A stretch of DNA of 64,000 nucleotides. Source: a virus. The number at the start of each line of letters is the position of its first letter. Position 1 is the stretch's first letter. This document shows positions 20,004 to 34,513 of the stretch, one piece after another. The notes beneath the pieces are model-generated. The model was given only the letters and a program-made list of their open reading frames with translations. It searched no databases and had not been told where the DNA came from. Location: the IMG/VR virus record IMGVR_UViG_3300045988_117355; one strand, written 5' to 3'. A program made the translations under genes and the position numbers.

Positions 20004-20086
20004 TCCTCCTTCGCATAGTGGTTGATTGCACTGGCTTTGTAACCCAGTCCTGAAAAGGCACGTCAGTTCGAATCTGACAGGAGGAT
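20004..20086 (+). tRNA. anomalous type-II tRNA (long variable arm); anticodon TGT in standard numbering with C-C mismatch closing the stem, or a 9-nt anticodon loop CTTTGTAAC
   Basis: perfect 7-bp acceptor TCCTCCT/AGGAGGA, T-arm GTCAGTTCGAATCTGAC, variable region TCCTGAAAAGGCAC, discriminator T. Confidence 0.5.
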
Positions 20087-22176: not shown

Positions 22177-22572
22177 ATGTTTAGCAATTGTGTTAATTTC
22201 AAGAAACAGGGTGATGTGGGAATGTGTTATGCTATAGCATATTATTCGAAACTGGGATGGACAATCTCAATTCCAGTTACTGATTCTCAAGATTATGATT
22301 TAATAGTAGATACAGGAACTAAGTTGTTAAAGGTGCAAGTAAAGACTACTACTCAAAAAAGTAATTATGGTGTTTATATTGCAAATTTAAAAACTTGTGG
22401 AGGTAATAGGAGCGGAGACACTATTAAGACCTTTGAAAGTAATCAGTCAGATTTAATATTTATACTAACAGATAGTGGTGATTGTTATTCAATTCCTAGA
22501 GATGCTGTTTCTTCTAAGACTACAATTAATTTAGGCGAAAAAGTTTTAATGTACAAGGTGTCATTATTTTAA
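22177..22572 (+). CDS. hypothetical protein
   Basis: 131 aa. Confidence 0.4.
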   Translation: MFSNCVNFKKQGDVGMCYAIAYYSKLGWTISIPVTDSQDYDLIVDTGTKLLKVQVKTTTQKSNYGVYIANLKTCGGNRSGDTIKTFESNQSDLIFILTDSGDCYSIPRDAVSSKTTINLGEKVLMYKVSLF

Positions 22573-22667: not shown

Positions 22668-22746
22668 TGCGGGTGGGTGAAATGGATATACAAATCATTC
22701 CAGCCTCATAAGCTGGAGATACTAGGTTCGATTCCTAGACCCGCTA
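22668..22746 (+). tRNA. tRNA-Met/fMet/Ile2-type (CAT), 1:72 mismatch, long D-loop
   Basis: acceptor (T)GCGGGT/ACCCGC(T), anticodon arm CCAGC-CTCATAA-GCTGG, T-arm CTAGGTTCGATTCCTAG. Confidence 0.55.
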
Positions 22747-22848: not shown

Positions 22849-23089
22849 GTAAAATTAGTGACTATTTTTAAATTAAAATCAAAATCAAAGATTATGGAAA
22901 CTTATATTAAAATGTATAAACAAAGATATTATGGTTATTACTGTAATATGTGTAAGGATTTAGGAATTAAACCTGTTCCATACTGTGACTTTGATAAGAA
23001 TTTATACAAAGAAACAAAACTTTTATTAAAAGATTCAATATTTTGGGCTAGTTCTGGATTTGACAGGTGATTAGAACAGTATTAAGACA

Positions 23090-23610
23090 TGTAGGAAGGC
23101 AGTTTCCTTATAAAGGCAAAACTAATAAATGCTAAAGGTAGAGTAATCTCCTTCTCTAGACCTGCAGCTATTGCAGCGTAAGAGTTGGGTTGTCAACTGA
23201 CCTAGAAACAGAATAGTTGTAAATATTAAAAAAGGATTGTATTAATATAAGCAAACCAGAATCCTTGAACCTGTGAATCTCTAGGTTGTAAATATATTTT
23301 TTATATTTCCCTTTTAGAAGGTGACAGACCATTGGGTAATTCCATAGGAGCGCTGTTAGGCTTATGAAGTTTCCTTATTCTTTAAAAATAAGGTGGTGGA
23401 GTAGTAATCCATGATTACCCCAAAGTTTGGTAGTTTGTGTATAGCTGAAAAATGGACAGTTGTGTGATATTGTATAAGCACACAAGTCAGTAAAACTATC
23501 TATAATTGATCTATGTGATTTATAGATCATAAACATGTATATCTTAATACTAAGTAAATTGTCTGGACCGGAGTTCGACTCTCCGCTAGTCCACGGGAAC
23601 AAGTTAGGTG
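23090..23610 (+). ncRNA. candidate structured non-coding RNA region (tmRNA-like features; unresolved)
   Basis: 700 nt without credible ORF, locally GC-richer; mini-ORF ending ...PAAIAA-TAA at 23165-23200; tRNA-like minihelix GGAC-CGGAGTTCGACTCTCCG-CTA-GTCC-A at 23568-23602; many hairpins. Confidence 0.25.
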
Positions 23611-26132: not shown

Positions 26133-27092
26133 TTGATTTCTGAATTTAATTGTTTATATTTGTATTATGTTAAACTAATACAAATAAACATGAGAAAATT
26201 AGAACAAAATGAAATTAATAAAATTCTTCAGCTTTACACTGAAGAAAAATATTCAATATCTAAAATAAGAGCACTTTTCAAACTTCAATTTGATGATGTA
26301 AAACATATTCTAGAAGAAAACGGAATAAAGACAAAATCTCAAAGAGAAAGTAGAAAGACTTATGATTATAATGAAAACTATTTTTCTGAAATAAACACAA
26401 AAGATAAAGCCTATTGGTTAGGATTTATTTACGCTGATGGATTTATTACTAAAAAGGCTAAAGGAAGTCCAGTTTTTGGAATGACTTTAGGAGAAATAGA
26501 GCCATTAGAAAAGTTAAATAAATATATGGATTCTAACAAACCTATAGGAATATATAAGAAGAAAAATAGTTATTCTGAAAAATCTATTGAATATAAATTA
26601 GCTTTCTGTTCTCCTAAATTAGTTTCAGATTTAGAGAAATGGGGAGTTGTAGAAAACAAAACATTCAAATTAAAATTTCCTAACTTTCTATCTCCAAACC
26701 TCATTCCTCATTTTATTAGAGGGTATTTTGATGGAGATGGGAGTGTATATCTTCACATTCAAAAAACTAAGGATAAGGAATATATATTCTTGGGTTCCCA
26801 GTTTTGCGGAACCAAAAGTTTTCTTTCAGACTTATCTAAATATATAAACTTAGAAACTTGCTTATATAAAGATAGTAGAAAACAAACTGATTGTTGGAGG
26901 ATACAATTAAATTCAAACATAAGAAGCTTAACCTTATATCATTATTTATATAATAATTGTGAAGATTTATTCTTATCAAGAAAAAGGGAAAAATTTGAAA
27001 ATTTTATAAAAGAGAGAGGTTCAACGACTACAATAAGCAATCCTATCTATGGTGATCCAGAATATTTAACTCTGTGTTATCTAGAGGATTAA
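26133..27092 (+). CDS. LAGLIDADG-family homing endonuclease (free-standing)
   Basis: two LAGLIDADG motifs: YWLGFIYADGFI and IRGYFDGDGSVY; 319 aa; immediately upstream of tRNA island. Confidence 0.65.
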   Translation: MISEFNCLYLYYVKLIQINMRKLEQNEINKILQLYTEEKYSISKIRALFKLQFDDVKHILEENGIKTKSQRESRKTYDYNENYFSEINTKDKAYWLGFIYADGFITKKAKGSPVFGMTLGEIEPLEKLNKYMDSNKPIGIYKKKNSYSEKSIEYKLAFCSPKLVSDLEKWGVVENKTFKLKFPNFLSPNLIPHFIRGYFDGDGSVYLHIQKTKDKEYIFLGSQFCGTKSFLSDLSKYINLETCLYKDSRKQTDCWRIQLNSNIRSLTLYHYLYNNCEDLFLSRKREKFENFIKERGSTTTISNPIYGDPEYLTLCYLED

Positions 27093-28327: not shown

Positions 28328-28400
28328 TAAATTGTAGCTCATTGGGTAGAGCATTTGATTTTTAATCAAAGGGTAGTGGGTTCAAGTCCCATCTTAGTGT
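28328..28400 (+). tRNA. tRNA-Lys(TTT)-like, probable pseudogene (acceptor strands do not pair)
   Basis: D-arm GCTC-ATTGGGTA-GAGC, anticodon arm TTTGA-TTTTTAA-TCAAA and T-arm GTGGGTTCAAGTCCCAT are canonical, but 5' TAAATTG cannot pair with 3' CTTAGTG; an intact tRNA-Lys(TTT) exists at 33155. Confidence 0.35.
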
Positions 28401-28574: not shown

Positions 28575-30026
28575 ATGTTATTTAAGAAAGAATATAAGAT
28601 AGGAGATGTAGTTACATTTTTCCTTAGAGATGGTAAAGAAGAATTTATTGCCACTTTTAAAGTTGAGCTTGAGTCACTGCCTACAGTATCATTTTATTAT
28701 TTAAAAGGATTTACTGAAAAATATGGTGAAGAGTATGGTAGTCATTATTCCACTTGGAATAAAATTCTTTCCATGTATGAAAGTTGGGCGGTACAGGCAA
28801 GTGAGAGAACTTTAAAAAATCTTGTTAAAGATTGTCAAGATCAAAAGTCATTCAAATGTAATTGTCCTGAGGGAAGTATATCACCAGAATTTGCTAATCT
28901 GGGAGAGTTAAATGTTTTCATTAGGGCTTTTAGATTATTATTAATAGATAAGTACCTTAATCTTTGTTCTACTTCAGAATCTATACAAAAATTAATAAGC
29001 AAAGCTAATGAAAACTATGAAGAATTCTCTTCAACTATTTACAAAGATACCTTATCTTATAGTCAGGCAAAGGAGTATTTATACCGGTATGTTACTTATA
29101 AAAATTCCATTCAAGAACAACCTATTAATATAATAGGTAATGGAACAATTACAGCATCTACTATATCTCCTCAGGAATTTACAATTACTCAAGTTAAGAA
29201 AGAAGAAGAAAAACCTGTTATAAAAGAAAATTTAATTATGAAAGAAGATGTATTATTCTCAAAAGAAGGAAAAGAAGCAACTTTTGCAAATCCGTTAAAC
29301 AATATCTTTGGAAATATGTTCAAAGGTATGAATATGCAAGGAGCTAACATTGAATTTGGATTTATTCAAGATCAATCAATTGCTATCTCACCTAAAGGAA
29401 TCGCATTTTTTGATCCAGAAACTCAAGGATACAAAGCATGGGATGCCAATAATAAAGAGTTAGTAGATATGGGAACTTTTGCTATGCAAGGTATCTTTAT
29501 GAAAGTTCCTGTGAAGAGAGAAAGTCTTAAAGAAGGAGATATTCTTCTCATTCAAGATGAGTACAGAATCTTTGATGGTTTTGCTACTAAGACCATGAAA
29601 TTGATTAACCCTCTTACAGGAGTACAGACTAATAAACAAAAACAAACTAACATTTTGAATTTTAATGTATTCATTAAAGTTGTTTGTGCAATGAATCCCT
29701 TTGCTAAAGGAACTATGAATGAATTCATGAAAATTAGCATGATGAGTTCTATGTTTGGAGGTCAAGGAATGCAGGGAATGTTTGGAGGTAATTGTGGAGG
29801 AGATATGGTATCTCAGATGTTCCAACTACAAATGTTAAGTAGTCTTTTTGGAAATGGTAAAGGATTTGATCTAAATTTCGATATGGATTTTGGATCTGTT
29901 TTTGATTCAGTGTTAGGAACTGAAGCTACTGAAGAATCAGAGTTGAAAAAGAAGCTCAAGGCTCTTGAAAAAGAAAATGCTAAACTCAAAGCAGCAAAAG
30001 AAGAACTTAAAGATAAAGAAGATTAA
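28575..30026 (+). CDS. hypothetical protein with Met/Gly/Gln/Phe-rich low-complexity region and C-terminal coiled coil
   Basis: track ORF 28476-30026 overlaps tRNA-Gln; first downstream in-frame ATG (MLFKKEYKIGD) taken as start. Confidence 0.45.
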   Translation: MLFKKEYKIGDVVTFFLRDGKEEFIATFKVELESLPTVSFYYLKGFTEKYGEEYGSHYSTWNKILSMYESWAVQASERTLKNLVKDCQDQKSFKCNCPEGSISPEFANLGELNVFIRAFRLLLIDKYLNLCSTSESIQKLISKANENYEEFSSTIYKDTLSYSQAKEYLYRYVTYKNSIQEQPINIIGNGTITASTISPQEFTITQVKKEEEKPVIKENLIMKEDVLFSKEGKEATFANPLNNIFGNMFKGMNMQGANIEFGFIQDQSIAISPKGIAFFDPETQGYKAWDANNKELVDMGTFAMQGIFMKVPVKRESLKEGDILLIQDEYRIFDGFATKTMKLINPLTGVQTNKQKQTNILNFNVFIKVVCAMNPFAKGTMNEFMKISMMSSMFGGQGMQGMFGGNCGGDMVSQMFQLQMLSSLFGNGKGFDLNFDMDFGSVFDSVLGTEATEESELKKKLKALEKENAKLKAAKEELKDKED

Positions 30027-30212
30027 GATTTAGATAGGAATAATTTTTATGAAAATTTCTTATAAAATTATTTGGAATTTGAAAATTATTACCTTATCTT
30101 TGTATTCATCTTCGATAAGATAAACTGTTGAAAGGAATATAATAGTTCCAAGTAAATAAAGGATGAGAGTTTCATAAAATATTATCATATTTTACTTTAA
30201 ATCATCCTAAAT

Positions 30213-30287
30213 GGGTTCTTAGCCAAGTAGGTAAAGGCACCTGACTCATAATCAGGAGATACGCTGGTTCGATCCCAGCAGAGCCCA
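30213..30287 (+). tRNA. tRNA-Met-type (CAT)
   Basis: acceptor GGGTTCT/AGAGCCC, anticodon arm CCTGA-CTCATAA-TCAGG, T-arm GCTGGTTCGATCCCAGC. Confidence 0.65.
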
Positions 30288-30297
30288 CATATACTAT

Positions 30298-30370
30298 ATA
30301 GGTGTAGTTCAGTTGGTAGAACGCTGCATTTGGGATGCAGAGGCCGCTAGTTCAAGTCTAGTCACCTATA
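30298..30370 (+). tRNA. tRNA-Pro (TGG), second copy
   Basis: perfect acceptor ATAGGTG/CACCTAT, D-arm GTTC-AGTTGGTA-GAAC, anticodon arm CTGCA-TTTGGGA-TGCAG, T-arm GCTAGTTCAAGTCTAGT. Confidence 0.65.
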
Positions 30371-30490
30371 CCAAGATTGTAATCATTGATACTTTAAATC
30401 CAAGTTGGTGGTAAGGACTTTAACATCACTTTATACTTTGTTGTATAATAAACCCATGTGAGTAGTATTTAAAATGGAGGCTCACAAATT

Positions 30491-30578
30491 GGAAGATTGC
30501 TAGAACGGTAATAGAACAGTCTTGAAAACTGATGTAACGTAATCATTCGTTGAGCAGGTTCGACTCCTGCATCTTCCT
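30491..30578 (+). tRNA. tRNA-Ser (TGA), type II
   Basis: acceptor GGAAGAT/ATCTTCC, 3-bp D-stem, anticodon loop CTTGAAA, ~21-nt variable arm, T-arm GCAGGTTCGACTCCTGC. Confidence 0.6.
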
Positions 30579-30590
30579 CATCAATATAAT

Positions 30591-30662
30591 GCTCCAATAG
30601 TTTAACGGATAAAACAATTCTCTTCTAAAGAATAAATTCTAGTTCGATTCTAGGTTGGAGTA
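30591..30662 (+). tRNA. tRNA-Arg (TCT)
   Basis: acceptor GCTCCAA/TTGGAGT, D-arm GTTT..AAAC, anticodon arm ATTCT-CTTCTAA-AGAAT, T-arm TCTAGTTCGATTCTAGG. Confidence 0.65.
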
Positions 30663-30671
30663 CTAATTTAT

Positions 30672-30744
30672 ATACTCATAGCTCAATCGGTAGAGCACCA
30701 GTCTCCAAAACTGAAGGTTCTAGGTTCAAGTCCTTGTGAGTATG
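30672..30744 (+). tRNA. tRNA-Trp (CCA)
   Basis: perfect acceptor ATACTCA/TGAGTAT, D-arm GCTC-AATCGGTA-GAGC, anticodon loop CTCCAAA, T-arm CTAGGTTCAAGTCCTTG. Confidence 0.65.
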
Positions 30745-30758
30745 CTAATTCAAACAAC

Positions 30759-31151
30759 ATGAATGTAACAAATTTATCTAAAGAAGAAAGATTGAAGCTC
30801 TTTCAAGAGTGGATGGATGCTAATAAGAAAGCTAATGAAGAGGGATACAATCCAGATATAACATCTAAAGATGGATATTATCTTACATTTGGCCATGATT
30901 ATGATATATCTAAAGAAGAATTAGAAGATCCTAACTTCTATTTAATAGAATGGGGAGAAAGTTCTAAACTTCCTTACTGGATGAGACAAATGGCTGATAA
31001 AATAGGTAAAAGATGTACTATAGATTGTTCTGGAGAAACAGGGATATTTCTGGGATTTACAGCTTCTTATGAGGATTTTTATTATAGAATAAAGCTTGAT
31101 ACAGGTGAGAATACATTAGAAACTTGTGTAAGTAATTTATTATTTGAATAG
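30759..31151 (+). CDS. hypothetical protein
   Basis: 130 aa. Confidence 0.45.
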   Translation: MNVTNLSKEERLKLFQEWMDANKKANEEGYNPDITSKDGYYLTFGHDYDISKEELEDPNFYLIEWGESSKLPYWMRQMADKIGKRCTIDCSGETGIFLGFTASYEDFYYRIKLDTGENTLETCVSNLLFE

Positions 31152-31221
31152 GATTATCTTCCAAAGGTTAGGAAACTTGACTGATACTCAAGCAATCATG
31201 GTTCGAATCCATGTAATCCTA
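31150..31221 (+). tRNA. tRNA-Ile (GAT)
   Basis: perfect acceptor AGGATTA/TAATCCT, D-arm TTCC..GGAA, anticodon arm CTTGA-CTGATAC-TCAAG, T-arm CATGGTTCGAATCCATG. Confidence 0.7.
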
Positions 31222-31515
31222 CCCATTAAGTAGTAATACTTGGTGCTGTTCAGAGTTAAGTTGAAAGTACGCCTCTGCAACCGGGAAATGTTGTAAAACT
31301 AATTAGAAAAAACTTATCGTACCATGAGAGGGAGACAGTTGACCTCTCACTTTTGAAACAAAATATGTAAAAATATTCACATAGTTGGTGACTATGTGCG
31401 TACAAGGTAGCACAAGGTTGTACAGAGGAGCTAACCACTCAAACCGTGCTAAAAATGTGATCATCTGTACTGATGAGAGTATGTACAGGACTTTTTAAGT
31501 CAAATCTCTCACTTT

Positions 31516-31587
31516 GGGGTCATAGTATAAAGGCTATTATACTAGATTTGCATTCTAGTGATCTGGGTTCGATTCCCAGTGATTCCA
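31516..31587 (+). tRNA. tRNA-Ala (TGC)
   Basis: acceptor GGGGTCA/TGATTCC (two G-U), anticodon arm CTAGA-TTTGCAT-TCTAG, T-arm CTGGGTTCGATTCCCAG. Confidence 0.65.
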
Positions 31588-31598
31588 CAATTATTTAA

Positions 31599-31684
31599 GT
31601 ACCTTTGGCCGAGTGGACGATGGCACATGACTGTTAATCATGCAGGAGAAATCCTCACCGTAAGTTCGAATCTTACAGGGTACG
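31599..31684 (+). tRNA. anomalous type-II (Ser-like architecture, G73) tRNA carrying anticodon GTT (Asn codons)
   Basis: acceptor GTACCTT/AGGGTAC, TG-GCC-GAGTGGACGAT-GGC D-arm, perfect anticodon arm CATGA-CTGTTAA-TCATG, 17-nt variable arm CAGGAGAAATCCTCACC, T-arm GTAAGTTCGAATCTTAC, discriminator G. Confidence 0.5.
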
Positions 31685-31815
31685 CTCATTCTTAACCTAC
31701 ATCTTAGGATGCTAATATAGTTGTACAAGAATGTCTTTGTAGTGTTAGGTGAATACAAAGACGCTGGCTGCAGCGTGATACTCAATGGTGGAATTAAGAG
31801 CAGCACCACCAATTT

Positions 31816-31886
31816 GCAGGTATAGCACAGTGGTAGTGCAGGAGCCTTCCAAGCTCACTACGTGGGTTCGATTCCCATTACCTGCT
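31816..31886 (+). tRNA. tRNA-Gly (TCC)
   Basis: perfect acceptor GCAGGTA/TACCTGC, D-arm GCAC-AGTGGTA-GTGC, anticodon loop CTTCCAA, T-arm GTGGGTTCGATTCCCAT. Confidence 0.7.
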
Positions 31887-31917
31887 CTATTAACATATTA
31901 AATAAGATAAGATAATT

Positions 31918-32274
31918 ATGATCAATTTAGAAGAAAAAATTAAAAATAATGAAGATTTAATTAGAAAGTATACATTAGATCAATGGATTGCATTATTAAA
32001 ACATATATGTATATCCTGCATAAGAATTCCTTCTAAAAAGGAAATAGAATCTATTATGAATGCAAATTCATTTAAAGTAGAATATGCAGAAGGAAGGATT
32101 ATAAAAATAGAACTTTACACAAATGATCTGTGTTGGGAAGACTTTAAAATGGAGTTAAATATATTAAATATAGTAATTTCTAGACAGAAAGGATATAACA
32201 CATTTGAACAAATTACATTTATTCCTCTTGAAGTGTTTAAAATATTAAATGATGGTATTTTTAAATGTAAATAA
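31918..32274 (+). CDS. hypothetical protein
   Basis: 118 aa. Confidence 0.45.
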   Translation: MINLEEKIKNNEDLIRKYTLDQWIALLKHICISCIRIPSKKEIESIMNANSFKVEYAEGRIIKIELYTNDLCWEDFKMELNILNIVISRQKGYNTFEQITFIPLEVFKILNDGIFKCK

Positions 32275-32280
32275 TTATAT

Positions 32281-32354
32281 TGCGGGATAGACTGGAGAGG
32301 TTCCAGCTCAGTCTCATAAGCTGAATTACGTGAGTTCGATTCTCACTCCCGCAA
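32281..32354 (+). tRNA. tRNA-Met-type (CAT), third copy
   Basis: acceptor TGCGGGA/TCCCGCA (extendable to 8 bp), anticodon arm TCAGT-CTCATAA-GCTGA, T-arm GTGAGTTCGATTCTCAC; two extra nt before the D-stem. Confidence 0.55.
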
Positions 32355-32381
32355 CTATTTATTACTTAAATTAGATAAATT

Positions 32382-32789
32382 ATGATTAATCTACAAGTTA
32401 TTCCTTTTGAAGAATTACTTCAATGGAAAGAGAAAATTCAAGAAGAACTAGATAGAAGAGATCTCTATGCATTCGACATTACTGTAAAAGCATTATTTGA
32501 ACTTCATCCAGAAAAGAAAGTATTAGTGTTAGGAATGTCTTATAAAGCATATGATACCCCTTATGAAACAGGTACTAGTTCTGCAATTTGGGTTGATGAA
32601 GCATTTGGCAAATATGGAGAAGATGATCTAATCAACCTCTGCGAGGATGAGGAGACAGAGAATCTTATTCAAAAGTTAGCAAGATACTTTAACCTTGAAG
32701 AAGACAATGAATTATATCCTGGACAAAGATGTATTTATTATATAGATAGATCTGATCCAGAGAATATTCAGACATATATAGAGGGTTAA
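32382..32789 (+). CDS. hypothetical acidic protein
   Basis: 135 aa. Confidence 0.45.
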   Translation: MINLQVIPFEELLQWKEKIQEELDRRDLYAFDITVKALFELHPEKKVLVLGMSYKAYDTPYETGTSSAIWVDEAFGKYGEDDLINLCEDEETENLIQKLARYFNLEEDNELYPGQRCIYYIDRSDPENIQTYIEG

Positions 32790-32855
32790 TAATCCTCTAA
32801 TGGAACTATAGCTCAGTAGGTAGAGCACTAGATTGAAGATCTAGGTTTGCACTGG
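32782..32855 (+). tRNA. tRNA-Phe (GAA)
   Basis: perfect acceptor GGAACTA/TAGTTCC, D-arm GCTC-AGTAGGTA-GAGC, anticodon arm CTAGA-TTGAAGA-TCTAG, T-arm ACTGGTTCGATCCCAGT. Confidence 0.7.
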
Positions 32856-33154
32856 TTCGATCCCAGTTAGTTCCACGTTTAATATTCTATAAGAGAGACT
32901 ATTATGTAGTATAGTTTTATTATGTTGAATATATGTTTTGAGCAGTTGTATCATTGAAAACTCCTCCCTCTTAGTGCTTTGGTTGGTAAAATAAAGCAGG
33001 CGAAAGTTTTAGCTCCTTCTAGAGAGTTTTTCAGACAGCCATAAGGAATTTGAAAAAGACCGTGTTCTAGACCTTTCATACTAGAAGGTTAAAAGTATGA
33101 TATTTATTGTGCACAATTTTAGGGGAGAGGTACATGTACTATCTCCCTAAATAT

Positions 33155-33226
33155 TACCCTGTAACTCAATGGCAGAGTACTACACTTTTAATGTAGGAGT
33201 TGTGGGTTCAAGTCCCATCAGGGTAA
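33155..33226 (+). tRNA. tRNA-Lys (TTT)
   Basis: perfect acceptor TACCCTG/CAGGGTA, D-arm ACTC-AATGGCA-GAGT, anticodon arm CTACA-CTTTTAA-TGTAG, T-arm GTGGGTTCAAGTCCCAT. Confidence 0.7.
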
Positions 33227-33236
33227 CTAATTTTAT

Positions 33237-33310
33237 AGAGGATTAACTCAGCGGTTGAGAGTGTCACTTTTACACAGTGAAAGTCATAGGTTCGAATCCT
33301 ATATCCTCTA
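33237..33310 (+). tRNA. tRNA-Val (TAC)
   Basis: perfect acceptor AGAGGAT/ATCCTCT, anticodon arm TCACT-TTTACAC-AGTGA, T-arm ATAGGTTCGAATCCTAT. Confidence 0.7.
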
Positions 33311-33312
33311 CT

Positions 33313-33386
33313 GTGTTATTAGCTTAGTTGGTTAAAGCGCTGGGTTGTGGTTCCAGAGATCATGGGTTCAAGTCCCATATAACACC
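33313..33386 (+). tRNA. tRNA-His (GTG)
   Basis: perfect acceptor GTGTTAT/ATAACAC, discriminator C, anticodon loop TTGTGGT, T-arm ATGGGTTCAAGTCCCAT; no encoded G-1. Confidence 0.7.
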
Positions 33387-33403
33387 TAATGTTTAATTTT
33401 ATG

Positions 33404-33491
33404 GAAGGTTACTCAAATTGGTTAAGAGGACACATTGCTAACGTGTTAGAGCAGTAAAATGCTGTGAGAGTTCGAACCTCTCACCTTCCTC
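33404..33491 (+). tRNA. tRNA-Ser (GCT), type II
   Basis: perfect acceptor GGAAGGT/ACCTTCC, 3-bp D-stem CTC/GAG, anticodon loop TTGCTAA, 19-nt variable arm, T-arm GAGAGTTCGAACCTCTC. Confidence 0.65.
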
Positions 33492-33654
33492 AAATAATAA
33501 ATAATGCAATGGAAAAGAGATTTAAAGTAATAACTAAAATGAATCAGATTCATTTAGTTACAATAGAAACAGAAGAGAAGTATAAATTAGGGTTATACTT
33601 ATCCTATTTAACAGAATTATTTGGTGAATCAGAAATAATTTCTCTATAATAAAT

Positions 33655-33960
33655 ATGGAAAGTAATATTGAGATAAATGACGGAGATATTATCCAATTTA
33701 AGAATGAAAATAATTCAAGATATTGGGTTGCAATACATCATTCTAAATGTAATATGGATAATAGAGAGAAATTTAGAAGAAATATCGCTGATCATACTGG
33801 ATATTATTTATTTAGTGGAATTTGGTATGAGGGAGATATTTTAACTGATAAACCTTATGGAAAATGTATAGAACAGCTCAGAAGAGGTATGTTTCCTAAT
33901 ATAGAAATAGTAGGAAATATTATTAAAGATTTTGAGAGGTTTAAAGAAATGTTAGTGTAG
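33655..33960 (+). CDS. hypothetical protein
   Basis: 101 aa. Confidence 0.4.
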   Translation: MESNIEINDGDIIQFKNENNSRYWVAIHHSKCNMDNREKFRRNIADHTGYYLFSGIWYEGDILTDKPYGKCIEQLRRGMFPNIEIVGNIIKDFERFKEMLV

Positions 33961-33971
33961 TATTTATATAA

Positions 33972-34043
33972 GTCGGGTTCATCTAGGGGTCAGGATTACA
34001 GATTTTCGATCTGTTCACAGGGGTTCAAATCCCCTACCCGATA
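33972..34043 (+). tRNA. tRNA-Glu (TTC)
   Basis: acceptor GTCGGGT/ACCCGAT, Glu-type D-arm TC-ATC-TAGGGGTCAGG-AT, anticodon arm ACAGA-TTTTCGA-TCTGT, T-arm AGGGGTTCAAATCCCCT. Confidence 0.7.
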
Positions 34044-34153
34044 CAAAATTTAGTTAAACAATAATGGCAGCTTAATAGTATAGGTGATGCTTTTTTATCT
34101 AATTAGAAATAATTTAATTAAGAAGCACTCAACCTATATTATTAAGATTTTAA

Positions 34154-34227
34154 GCACCTGTAGCCCAATTGGCAGAGGCAATAGATTTAGGCTCTATCCA
34201 GTGTGAGTTCGAATCTCACTAGGTGTA
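34154..34227 (+). tRNA. anomalous type-I (short variable arm) tRNA with anticodon TAG (Leu codon CUA), discriminator A
   Basis: acceptor GCACCTG/TAGGTGT (two G-U), D-arm GCC-CAATTGGCAGA-GGC, perfect anticodon arm ATAGA-TTTAGGC-TCTAT, 5-nt variable, T-arm GTGAGTTCGAATCTCAC. Confidence 0.5.
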
Positions 34228-34271
34228 CGAAAATCAAGAAAGAACAGGTTTTCGATTTTTTGGTGCAGTTT

Positions 34272-34330
34272 GGGGTATTTGAAGATTGATTTCATCTTTA
34301 AATACCCCATTTTTATTTTTATACTTAACT
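34272..34330 (+). terminator. rho-independent terminator closing the tRNA island
   Basis: GGGGTATTT ... AAATACCCC hairpin followed by ATTTTTATTTTT. Confidence 0.6.
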
Positions 34331-34513
34331 TCAAAATATGAGCCTATTTTATACCCAAAATGATGTAATTTTTAGAATCTCATTCTGGAACTGTATATTG
34401 AAAATAATAAAAATTTCATAAGGTGTATATATAATGAAATTATGAGTAATTTAGTTAAATATTTTTAAATTTATTTGATGTTGAATTTTATAAATAATAG
34501 ATAGAATATAGTT

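Follow-up and report, generated by a model that had tools for sequence, protein, structure and literature searches.

A class II-shaped phage tRNA with a GUU anticodon that probably decodes AAU and AAC as asparagine

The 64,000-nucleotide stretch of viral DNA analysed here (IMG/VR virus record IMGVR_UViG_3300045988_117355; hereafter the window) contains, at positions 31599-31684 of the plus strand, a transfer RNA (tRNA) gene whose 86-nucleotide (nt) product is a canonical cloverleaf of class II shape with the anticodon GUU. In textbook accounts of bacteria, the long-arm (class II) architecture belongs to the leucine, serine, tyrosine and selenocysteine tRNAs only. We conclude that the gene probably encodes a functional phage tRNA that decodes AAU and AAC as asparagine and is charged by way of its GUU anticodon and its discriminator base, G73. 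Judged by its sequence, the tRNA body is a mosaic: its D arm resembles that of tRNA-Ser and its extra arm that of tRNA-Tyr, whereas its anticodon and discriminator are of Asn type.

ARAGORN calls the gene as tRNA-Asn(gtt) at 31599..31685, Rfam RF00005 spans 31599..31684 over the full model with a score of 54 bits (E=2e-9), and RNAfold predicts the same cloverleaf for 31599-31684. Together with a direct reading of the sequence, these results bear out the initial annotation, which had described a class II tRNA with a long variable arm, G73 and anticodon GUU. The parts of the tRNA are given in Table 1. The acceptor stem GUACCUU/AGGGUAC comprises 7 base pairs (bp), one of which is G-U, and the acceptor and T stems are in the standard 7/5 configuration. 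The 3-bp D stem GCC/GGC is supplemented by G13-U22, and the enlarged D loop GAGUGGACGAU contains G18G19, as in class II tRNAs; U8, G9 and A26 can also be read in the sequence. Likewise, the variable region is 17 nt long and holds a hairpin, which places it in class II (at least 10 nt and hairpin-forming). Intron-like removal of the arm was considered and dismissed for this 17-nt hairpin at position 44-48; we know of no route in bacteria by which a hairpin of that length at that position could be spliced.

Table 1. Positions, strand and supporting evidence for the long-armed tRNA(GUU), its parts, and a second long-armed tRNA of the window
Feature	Position	Strand	Evidence
Whole class II-shaped tRNA(GUU), 86 nt; CCA not encoded, CTC directly 3'	31599..31684	+	ARAGORN; Rfam 54 bits; RNAfold; family covariation 15/20 pairs
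Acceptor 5' strand GUACCUU; G1-C72, U2-A71, A3-U70; not the GGA start of tRNA-Ser	31599..31605	+	Sequence; 33 distinct covarying acceptor stems in the family
D arm GCC-GAGUGGACGAU-GGC; 3-bp stem, 11-nt loop; class II/Ser-like sequence	31608..31624	+	Sequence
Anticodon arm CAUGA-CUGUUAA-UCAUG	31626..31642	+	Sequence; stem pairs covary
Anticodon GUU, reads AAC/AAU	31633..31635	+	Sequence, ARAGORN; retained in syntenic relatives L086, L107, L108
Variable region C-AGGA-GAAA-UCCU-CACC; 4-bp stem after 1 nt, capped by a GNRA tetraloop; 3' spacer of 4 nt, last base C48	31643..31659	+	RNAfold, sequence parse
T arm GUAAG-UUCGAAU-CUUAC	31660..31676	+	Sequence; Rfam; family alignment
Acceptor 3' strand AGGGUAC	31677..31683	+	Sequence; family alignment
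Discriminator G73, common to the bacterial tRNA-Asn and tRNA-Ser identity sets	31684..31684	+	Sequence; identity rules (PMC9976931)
Class II-shaped tRNA-Thr(UGU), 83 nt; D arm GCA-UAGUGGUUGAU-UGC; 14-nt variable region U-CCU-GAAA-AGG-CAC; U1-A72, U73	20004..20086	+	ARAGORN, Rfam

ARAGORN finds 27 tRNAs between 18.9 and 34.2 kilobases (kb) of the window. The long-armed tRNA(GUU) is the sole Asn tRNA among them, and the set covers the 20 amino acids only if it is counted as Asn. No class I tRNA-Asn was found in the window, either among the 27 ARAGORN tRNAs or by Rfam, in agreement with the earlier statement that a conventional type I tRNA-Asn is absent. One candidate for a hidden class I tRNA-Asn, a partial Rfam match at 28334-28393 (plus strand), was rejected on account of its Lys UUU loop. 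This element, a degenerate or interrupted tRNA-Lys gene, is a partial tRNA (50 bits, model positions 7-64) that lacks an intact acceptor stem; a matching 5' acceptor strand apparently lies about 15 nt upstream.

The codons read by GUU are abundant in the window: AAU and AAC together account for 6.1% of the codons in 68 open reading frames (ORFs), and AAU alone for 5.2%. In alignments with solved NAPRTases, Asn residues that the window encodes by AAY (AAU or AAC) fall on the conserved Asn of GTSN, NIV and GIGTN, and of the eight positions at which 2im5 has Asn, seven have Asn in the window too. Likewise, alignment with Taq Pol I places window Asn residues encoded by AAY on the conserved Asn of FNQ and N..QGT. 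At positions where a homologue has Ser, the window has a Ser codon in 10 of 17 cases and AAY in only 2 of 17. A reassignment of AAY to serine is thus rejected by the alignments with solved NAPRTase and Pol I structures, which speak to reassignment and do not reach down to low-level mistranslation.

The anticodon is retained at this locus in diverged phages. One relative, L108, has an identical tRNA. Two others, L086 and L107, share the window's downstream gene order Asn-Gly-Met-Phe-Lys-(Val)-His-Ser-Glu-Leu; directly upstream, L086 has Ile-Ala as in the window and L107 has Ala before Ile. The long tRNA of L086 departs from that of the window by compensatory changes in the anticodon, variable and T stems, and that of L107 by compensatory changes in the acceptor and T stems and by one base of the 3' spacer. 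GTT is retained in both, and no class I Asn tRNA is called among the 20-23 tRNAs retrieved for each. The initial annotation had offered, as one of its readings, a recent point mutation of a Ser(GCU) gene, and had held that GCT at the homologous position in related phages would speak against an unusual tRNA here; L086, L107 and L108 all keep GTT. That a tRNA-Ser(GCU) gene underwent a recent GCT-to-GTT mutation in this one phage is suggested by the single base that separates GCU from GUU and by a D-arm sequence common to many phage Ser tRNAs. It is nevertheless extremely unlikely, in view of the conservation of GTT across ecosystems, in syntenic relatives that have diverged and in no fewer than 43 variants, and of an acceptor, variable arm and discriminator that are systematically unlike those of Ser tRNAs. 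The bona fide tRNA-Ser(GCT) that had been placed near 33404 is indeed present, starting at 33403, and it differs from the long-armed tRNA(GUU) in D arm, acceptor and variable arm and by its U73; the window's two Ser tRNAs differ from the long-armed tRNA in every arm. These two tRNA-Ser genes (33403-33490 and 30491-30578, plus strand) both have U73 and not the usual bacterial G73, and the same is seen in L020, L025, L026 and L032; the long GTT tRNAs of L065, L082 and L096 likewise parse with U73, and so does L040. An ancient origin of the long-armed tRNA from a Ser- or Tyr-type class II gene is plausible.

A search pattern that joined the D arm to CTGTTAA matched 39 IMG/VR contigs of 8-435 kb, in each of which ARAGORN gives an 82-91-nt tRNA(gtt). 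In metagenome-assembled genomes, the same pattern matched only four contigs among 185,579 species genomes; three of these carry tRNA arrays and the fourth gives no tRNA call. Outside phages, the long-armed Asn family is almost absent. A normal 72-77-nt tRNA-Asn accompanies the long one in about half of the viral loci, and the others, the window included, show only the long one. When viral and metagenome matches were pooled, 43 unique variants with 33 different acceptor stems were obtained, and members of the family occur in phage contigs, in metagenomes and in cultured phages (Cronobacter phage GAP31 and Mesorhizobium phage Cp1R7A-A1).

Compensatory double changes affect 15 of the 20 cloverleaf pairs in a 20-sequence alignment. 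The MAFFT/RNAalifold consensus missed the variable arm owing to its length variation, so the arm was analysed sequence by sequence. Among the 13 variants with the arm geometry of the window tRNA, double changes are seen in three of the four pairs of the variable stem, 11 have a GNRA loop, and the 3' spacer reads C-R-N-C. G73 is present in 40 of the 43 variants, and the last variable base is C (C48, the partner of G15) in all 43. To judge from these patterns, the family is a conserved and widespread one of phages rather than an accident. The window gene does not encode CCA, and its array has ORFs resembling homing endonucleases as well as one or more degenerate tRNAs, all of which might be expected of a non-translational or decayed gene, whether a pseudogene, a decoy, or an element (a recombination or processing signal, for example) that looks like a tRNA but is at no time charged with an amino acid. 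Such a gene is very improbable here, given that compensatory changes occur in every helix across the 43 variants, that little or no variation is seen in the anticodon loop CUGUUAA, the T loop, G18G19, C48 and G73, that several members encode CCA, and that the Asn slot of otherwise complete tRNA sets is occupied.

In bacteria, asparagine identity consists of GUU and G73, which suffice for the transplantation of Asn identity in E. coli (PMC9976931). Serine identity lies in the extra arm and tertiary shape, backed by G73 and by G1-C72/G2-C71 (with A/U3-U/A70), pairs that are conserved in most bacterial tRNA-Ser, and C2-G71 acts as an antideterminant for seryl-tRNA synthetase (SerRS) (PMC9976931, PMC7609411). 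The window tRNA has the GUU and G73 of tRNA-Asn but not its class I body with a 4-5-nt variable loop. It has the G73 and C11-G24 of tRNA-Ser but U2-A71 in place of G2-C71, and it lacks the 5-7-bp variable stem with a 1-nt spacer, the lone unpaired base ahead of the T stem by which the arm is oriented. With GUU and G73, it has neither the GUA anticodon nor the A73 of tRNA-Tyr. Charging by the tyrosyl- or leucyl-tRNA synthetase (TyrRS, LeuRS) was rejected because G73 is an antideterminant for both enzymes (PMC9976931). U1-A72, which marks tRNA-Asn for GatCAB (PMC9976931, PMC7609411) and is needed on the indirect route to asparagine by way of Asp-tRNA-Asn, occurs in 6 of the 43 variants; the window tRNA has G1-C72.

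The initial annotation had matched both the D arm and the variable arm to tRNA-Ser. The D arm is indeed Ser-like, but the variable arm, with its 4-bp stem and 4-nt 3' spacer, has the geometry of bacterial and phage tRNA-Tyr and not that of tRNA-Ser (5-7 bp, 1 nt). Phage tRNA-Tyr genes at these loci show the same combination of short stem, tetraloop and 3-4-nt spacer. G73, which had been cited as a SerRS element, is a determinant for serine, but it is also the discriminator of bacterial tRNA-Asn (PMC9976931).

Unbiased scans were made with the exact D arm and any anticodon, viral contigs being searched with two versions of the arm and metagenomes with one, and this exact D arm was found on tRNAs with Ser, Tyr, Asn, Lys and Met anticodons. 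An acceptor beginning with GGA is present in 27 of 28 tRNAs with Ser anticodons and in none of 19 with GTT; for a G1-G2 start, Fisher's test between Ser anticodons and GTT gives p=6e-10. The spacer 3' of the variable stem is 1 nt in 28 of 28 with Ser anticodons and 4 nt in 17 of 19 with GTT, and the variable stem is mostly 6 bp (range 5-7) in the former and 3-4 bp in the latter. Position 73 is G in all 28 with Ser anticodons; with GTT it is G in 16 and U in 3 of the 19. Wherever the anticodon is GTT, the hallmarks of real Ser tRNAs are systematically absent. In the family as a whole, position 2-71 shows no conservation (UA in 19, CG in 11 and GC in 7 of the 43 variants), and the published SerRS antideterminant, C2-G71, is present in 11 of 43.

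These comparisons bear on a further reading, in which the tRNA would be a Ser-accepting mistranslator or a dual Asn/Ser acceptor: SerRS, for which the extra arm and G73 count and the anticodon does not, would then place serine at some or all AAU and AAC codons. The class II shape, the Ser-like D arm with C11-G24, G73 and G1-C72 would all suit such a tRNA, as would the minority of the family that has Ser-like arm geometry or a GG acceptor start. Its features otherwise make serylation improbable. The window tRNA has U2-A71, in a family without 2-71 conservation, where Ser tRNAs with the same D arm begin with GGA in 27 of 28 cases, and its type of variable arm (stem of 3-4 bp, spacer of 4 nt) contrasts with the 5-7 bp and 1 nt of Ser tRNAs. 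Furthermore, AAY makes up 6.1% of the codons and stands at conserved Asn positions, no other tRNA supplies Asn in a set that covers all 20 amino acids, and the sister class II-shaped Lys, Thr and Met tRNAs have discriminators other than G73. The mischarging option of the initial annotation, serine at Asn codons, is likewise unlikely for a tRNA whose family lacks the G2-C71/A3-U70 Ser signature and whose short variable stem is followed by a 4-nt spacer, in a genome with AAY at conserved Asn positions. It is a long shot, too, that partial or full serylation, with SerRS recognizing the arm and G73 and asparaginyl-tRNA synthetase (AsnRS) recognizing GUU and G73, would make AAU and AAC deliberately ambiguous between Asn and Ser during infection and, together with the Lys, Thr and Met versions, would amount to a programmed-mistranslation toolkit.

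Several points nevertheless weigh against decoding as asparagine. What SerRS chiefly recognizes is the extra arm and the tertiary shape, and G73 counts among the determinants for serine, so that some serylation may occur. A minority of the family has Ser-like arm geometry (L001:4717, L004, L005, L014, L024, L027, L029, L035, L042 and L044), and GAP31, L010 and L036 have a GG acceptor start. The first scan fixed GTT, and the constancy of the anticodon there is partly by construction; the any-anticodon scans mend this for two exact D-arm sequences only. AsnRS is a class IIb enzyme that approaches its tRNA from the variable-loop side. To our knowledge, every natural tRNA-Asn on record belongs to class I, which is a descriptive norm and not a demonstrated requirement of AsnRS, and we know of no test showing that AsnRS tolerates an extra arm.

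On balance, the GUU anticodon and G73, the absence of Ser determinants and the conservation of the family favour an unusual phage tRNA-Asn, which was among the options that the initial annotation had listed. We propose that host AsnRS would charge the long-armed tRNA through its GUU anticodon and G73. The class II scaffold, with its 3-bp D stem and extra hairpin arm, probably goes back to a Ser(GCU/ACU)- or Tyr(GUA)-type gene, the anticodons of which are each one base from GUU, and the anticodon and acceptor would have been remoulded in an alloacceptor shift. In that shift, the SerRS determinants (G2-C71/A3-U70 and a long variable stem with a 1-nt spacer) would have been erased, and G73 would keep TyrRS and LeuRS from charging the product. 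The tRNA would then fill the Asn slot of the 20-amino-acid set and serve the approximately 6% of codons that are AAY. The arm itself may persist through structural entrenchment in a core built on a 3-bp D stem.

The same shape is found on other isotypes. In the fetched loci, tRNAs of at least 81 nt outside Ser, Leu and Tyr comprise 6 of 25 Thr(UGU), 4 of 30 Lys(UUU), 1 of 18 Lys(CUU), 4 of 25 Met, 2 of 14 Ile and 2 of 14 His tRNAs, as well as single Arg, Pro, Trp and Asp cases; these loci were found through their Asn tRNA, and the frequencies of the other long tRNAs are not population estimates. Of these 23 non-Asn class II-shaped cases, 17 decode ANN codons. The metagenome scan on the exact D arm also returned the anticodons CAT (4), CTT (1) and TTT (2). 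In the window, the long tRNA-Thr(UGU) (Table 1) has the arm geometry of the long Asn tRNA, and similar long Thr(UGU) genes are present in L008, L011 and L031. The class II-shaped Lys, Thr and Met tRNAs have features of their own isotypes (A73 or U73; an initiator-type C1xA72; G1-C72/C2-G71 for Thr) and not those of Ser.

Class II-shaped tRNA-Lys(CUU/UUU) genes occur in L044 (2999-3086 and 3320-3407), L056, L058, L081, L110 and L146 (1492-1578), with the same D arm, a short stem, a 4-nt spacer and U73 or A73; Mesorhizobium phage Cp1R7A-A1 and the Caulobacter CcrBL9 group are among the carriers. Taken together, long Lys and long Asn tRNAs span the entire AAN codon box. Class II-shaped tRNAs with the anticodon CAT, A73 and a variable region C-UUC-GAAA-GAA-CAUC are present in metagenome contigs L077, L085, L123 and L136, and an 88-nt initiator-like tRNA with a C1xA72 mismatch and an 18-nt variable region lies at 5587-5674 of L001. 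The opposite class switch is also seen: tRNA-Leu and tRNA-Tyr of class I length (72-78 nt) are found in L017 (322-394 and 903-1451), L027 (142-899), L044 (146-302) and L011 (5389-5460).

Among cultured phages, Mesorhizobium phage Cp1R7A-A1 carries three tRNAs of 88 nt, one for Asn and two for Lys, the tRNA-Asn of Cronobacter phage GAP31 (JN882284.1, 89773-89861) is 89 nt long (variable region C-GGGA-GCAA-TCCC-CGAC, G73, CCA), and the Caulobacter CcrBL9-group phages have an 87-nt Lys(CUU). In Enterobacter phage EC152, the query match is annotated as tRNA-Asn and is known from that annotation alone. The long tRNAs of cultured phages are annotated plainly as tRNA-Asn or tRNA-Lys. In Cronobacter phage GAP31 (L145), a gene at 1238-1324 that is annotated as tRNA-Lys owes its 87 nt to an insertion in the D-arm region and not to a long variable arm, and ARAGORN makes no call there. 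Suppressor-type tRNAs (CTA, TTA, TCA) are present in several carriers of long Asn tRNAs (L001 2343, L005 332, L020 2110, L021 11904, L025 9466, L026 8360, L032 6337 and L109 765), suggesting stop-codon recoding in some of these phages.

This spread over isotypes invites a second account of why the arm exists, namely that it is an adaptive anti-defence feature by which phage Asn tRNAs (and Lys, Thr, Met and Ile tRNAs) would escape host tRNA nucleases, or the phage's own depletion of host tRNAs, through their shape and not through mutations of the anticodon loop. In E. coli, three tRNAs, Lys(UUU), Thr(UGU) and Asn(GUU), are cleaved by the PARIS nuclease AriB at 40|41, beside the point from which the variable arm emerges, and T5 variants of just these three rescue infection (PMC12409363). 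The long non-Ser/Leu/Tyr tRNAs of our loci show a suggestive overlap with this target set: most of them are for Asn, Lys, Thr, Met and Ile, with ANN decoded by 17 of the 23 that are not Asn, and the window itself holds a long Asn and a long Thr(UGU). Selection on the variable stem, visible in its covariation and GNRA loops, and the near confinement of the family to phages also fit. On the other side, the ANN bias is equally explained by mutational closeness to Ser(GCU/ACU) or Tyr(GUA) ancestors, anticodons with U36 lying near Ser-GCU, and the loci were ascertained through their Asn tRNA. The window tRNA moreover retains U36-A-A-U-C-A41, the preferred AriB site sequence, and its hosts are probably Bacteroidota, whereas the AriB cleavage data are for E. 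coli tRNAs. We therefore regard an anti-defence role for the arm as possible but doubtful.

The window has a G+C content of about 30%, and its Pol A is 49-52% identical to Pol A of crAss-like Bacteroides phages; it derives from an AT-rich crAss-like phage, the hosts of which are probably Bacteroidota. No near-identical GenBank phage was found for positions 30000-34500. Pfam scans of 20 ORFs identified Band_7, Pol A, NAPRTase, helicase, AAA, LAGLIDADG and PD-(D/E)XK domains, and no synthetase or tRNA enzyme near the tRNA. ORFs resembling a PD-(D/E)XK nuclease and a LAGLIDADG homing endonuclease lie within the tRNA array (22177-22572 and 26133-27092, plus strand) and, by analogy, recall the homing endonucleases of the T4 tRNA region. 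A tRNA-Met(cat) at 22669-22745 (plus strand), for which ARAGORN places the anticodon at position 39, is not reported by Rfam. At 23045-23596 (plus strand), Rfam gives a transfer-messenger RNA (tmRNA) match barely over threshold (49 versus 47 bits), without an ARAGORN call. A phage-encoded tmRNA is plausible here because ARAGORN finds one in the syntenic relative L107 (10742-11225) at the matching place beside Tyr; L005 and L032 also carry tmRNAs.

We found no prior description of long-arm Asn, Lys or Thr phage tRNAs in full-text literature searches, whose coverage is incomplete, so that this absence is not proof of novelty. The family sets class II architecture on an Asn anticodon in a conserved, covarying and almost phage-restricted form, and sister families do so on Lys, Thr, Met and Ile. 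Should these tRNAs be charged according to their anticodons, class IIb and other synthetases would tolerate an extra arm, and tRNA genes would cross the boundaries of isotype and class within phage tRNA arrays. The family also offers a lead on whether phages alter tRNA shape to escape tRNA-cleaving immune systems, and its cultured carriers (Cronobacter phage GAP31, Enterobacter phage EC152, Mesorhizobium phage Cp1R7A-A1 and the Caulobacter CcrBL9-group phages) make experiments feasible. Annotation pipelines will flag such long-armed genes as isotype/anticodon mismatches, and to read them by default as Ser mischargers would be unwarranted.

When compared with known tRNAs, the phage tRNA shares with canonical bacterial tRNA-Asn(GUU) the anticodon loop CUGUUAA with A37, G73 and, in some family members, U1-A72, but its 3-bp D stem and 17-nt hairpin arm set it apart from the canonical class I body, in which the D stem has 4 bp and the variable loop 5 nt. 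With bacterial and phage tRNA-Ser it shares the D arm GCC-GAG(U/C)GG...GGC, C11-G24, G73, G1-C72 and an extra arm; it differs in lacking G2-C71/A3-U70, in its stem (4 versus 5-7 bp) and spacer (4 versus 1 nt), and in its non-Ser anticodon. Its arm geometry (1 nt, 3-4 bp, 3-4-nt loop, 3-4-nt spacer) and its G34 and U35 are those of bacterial and phage tRNA-Tyr(GUA), the anticodon stem GCAGA/UCUGC of many family members is also found in tRNA-Tyr, and GUA and GUU differ by one base; unlike tRNA-Tyr, however, it has G73 and not A73, and U36 and not A36.

Bacterial allo-tRNAs and nematode nev-tRNAs likewise join a long-armed body to the anticodon of another amino acid. The nev-tRNAs are eukaryotic and are leucylated. 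The allo-tRNAs have 8/4 or 9/3 helices and are serylated or alanylated whatever their anticodon (PMC5389517, PMC7609411), whereas the phage tRNA is of 7/5 type and lacks the Ser acceptor determinants. The T5 variants of tRNA-Lys, Thr and Asn that neutralise PARIS (PMC12409363) and the phage tRNAs that evade anticodon nucleases through mutations of the anticodon loop (PMC10264068) are also ANN-decoding phage copies that are structurally unlike host tRNAs, but those variants are class I and escape by point substitutions near the cleavage site, whereas here the whole tRNA class is changed. Finally, the type I tRNA-Leu of Streptomyces coelicolor provides a precedent for one isotype that exists in both classes and is still charged by its cognate synthetase, although in the reverse direction (a class II isotype made class I), in a cellular organism and with experimental tests (PMC6614811).

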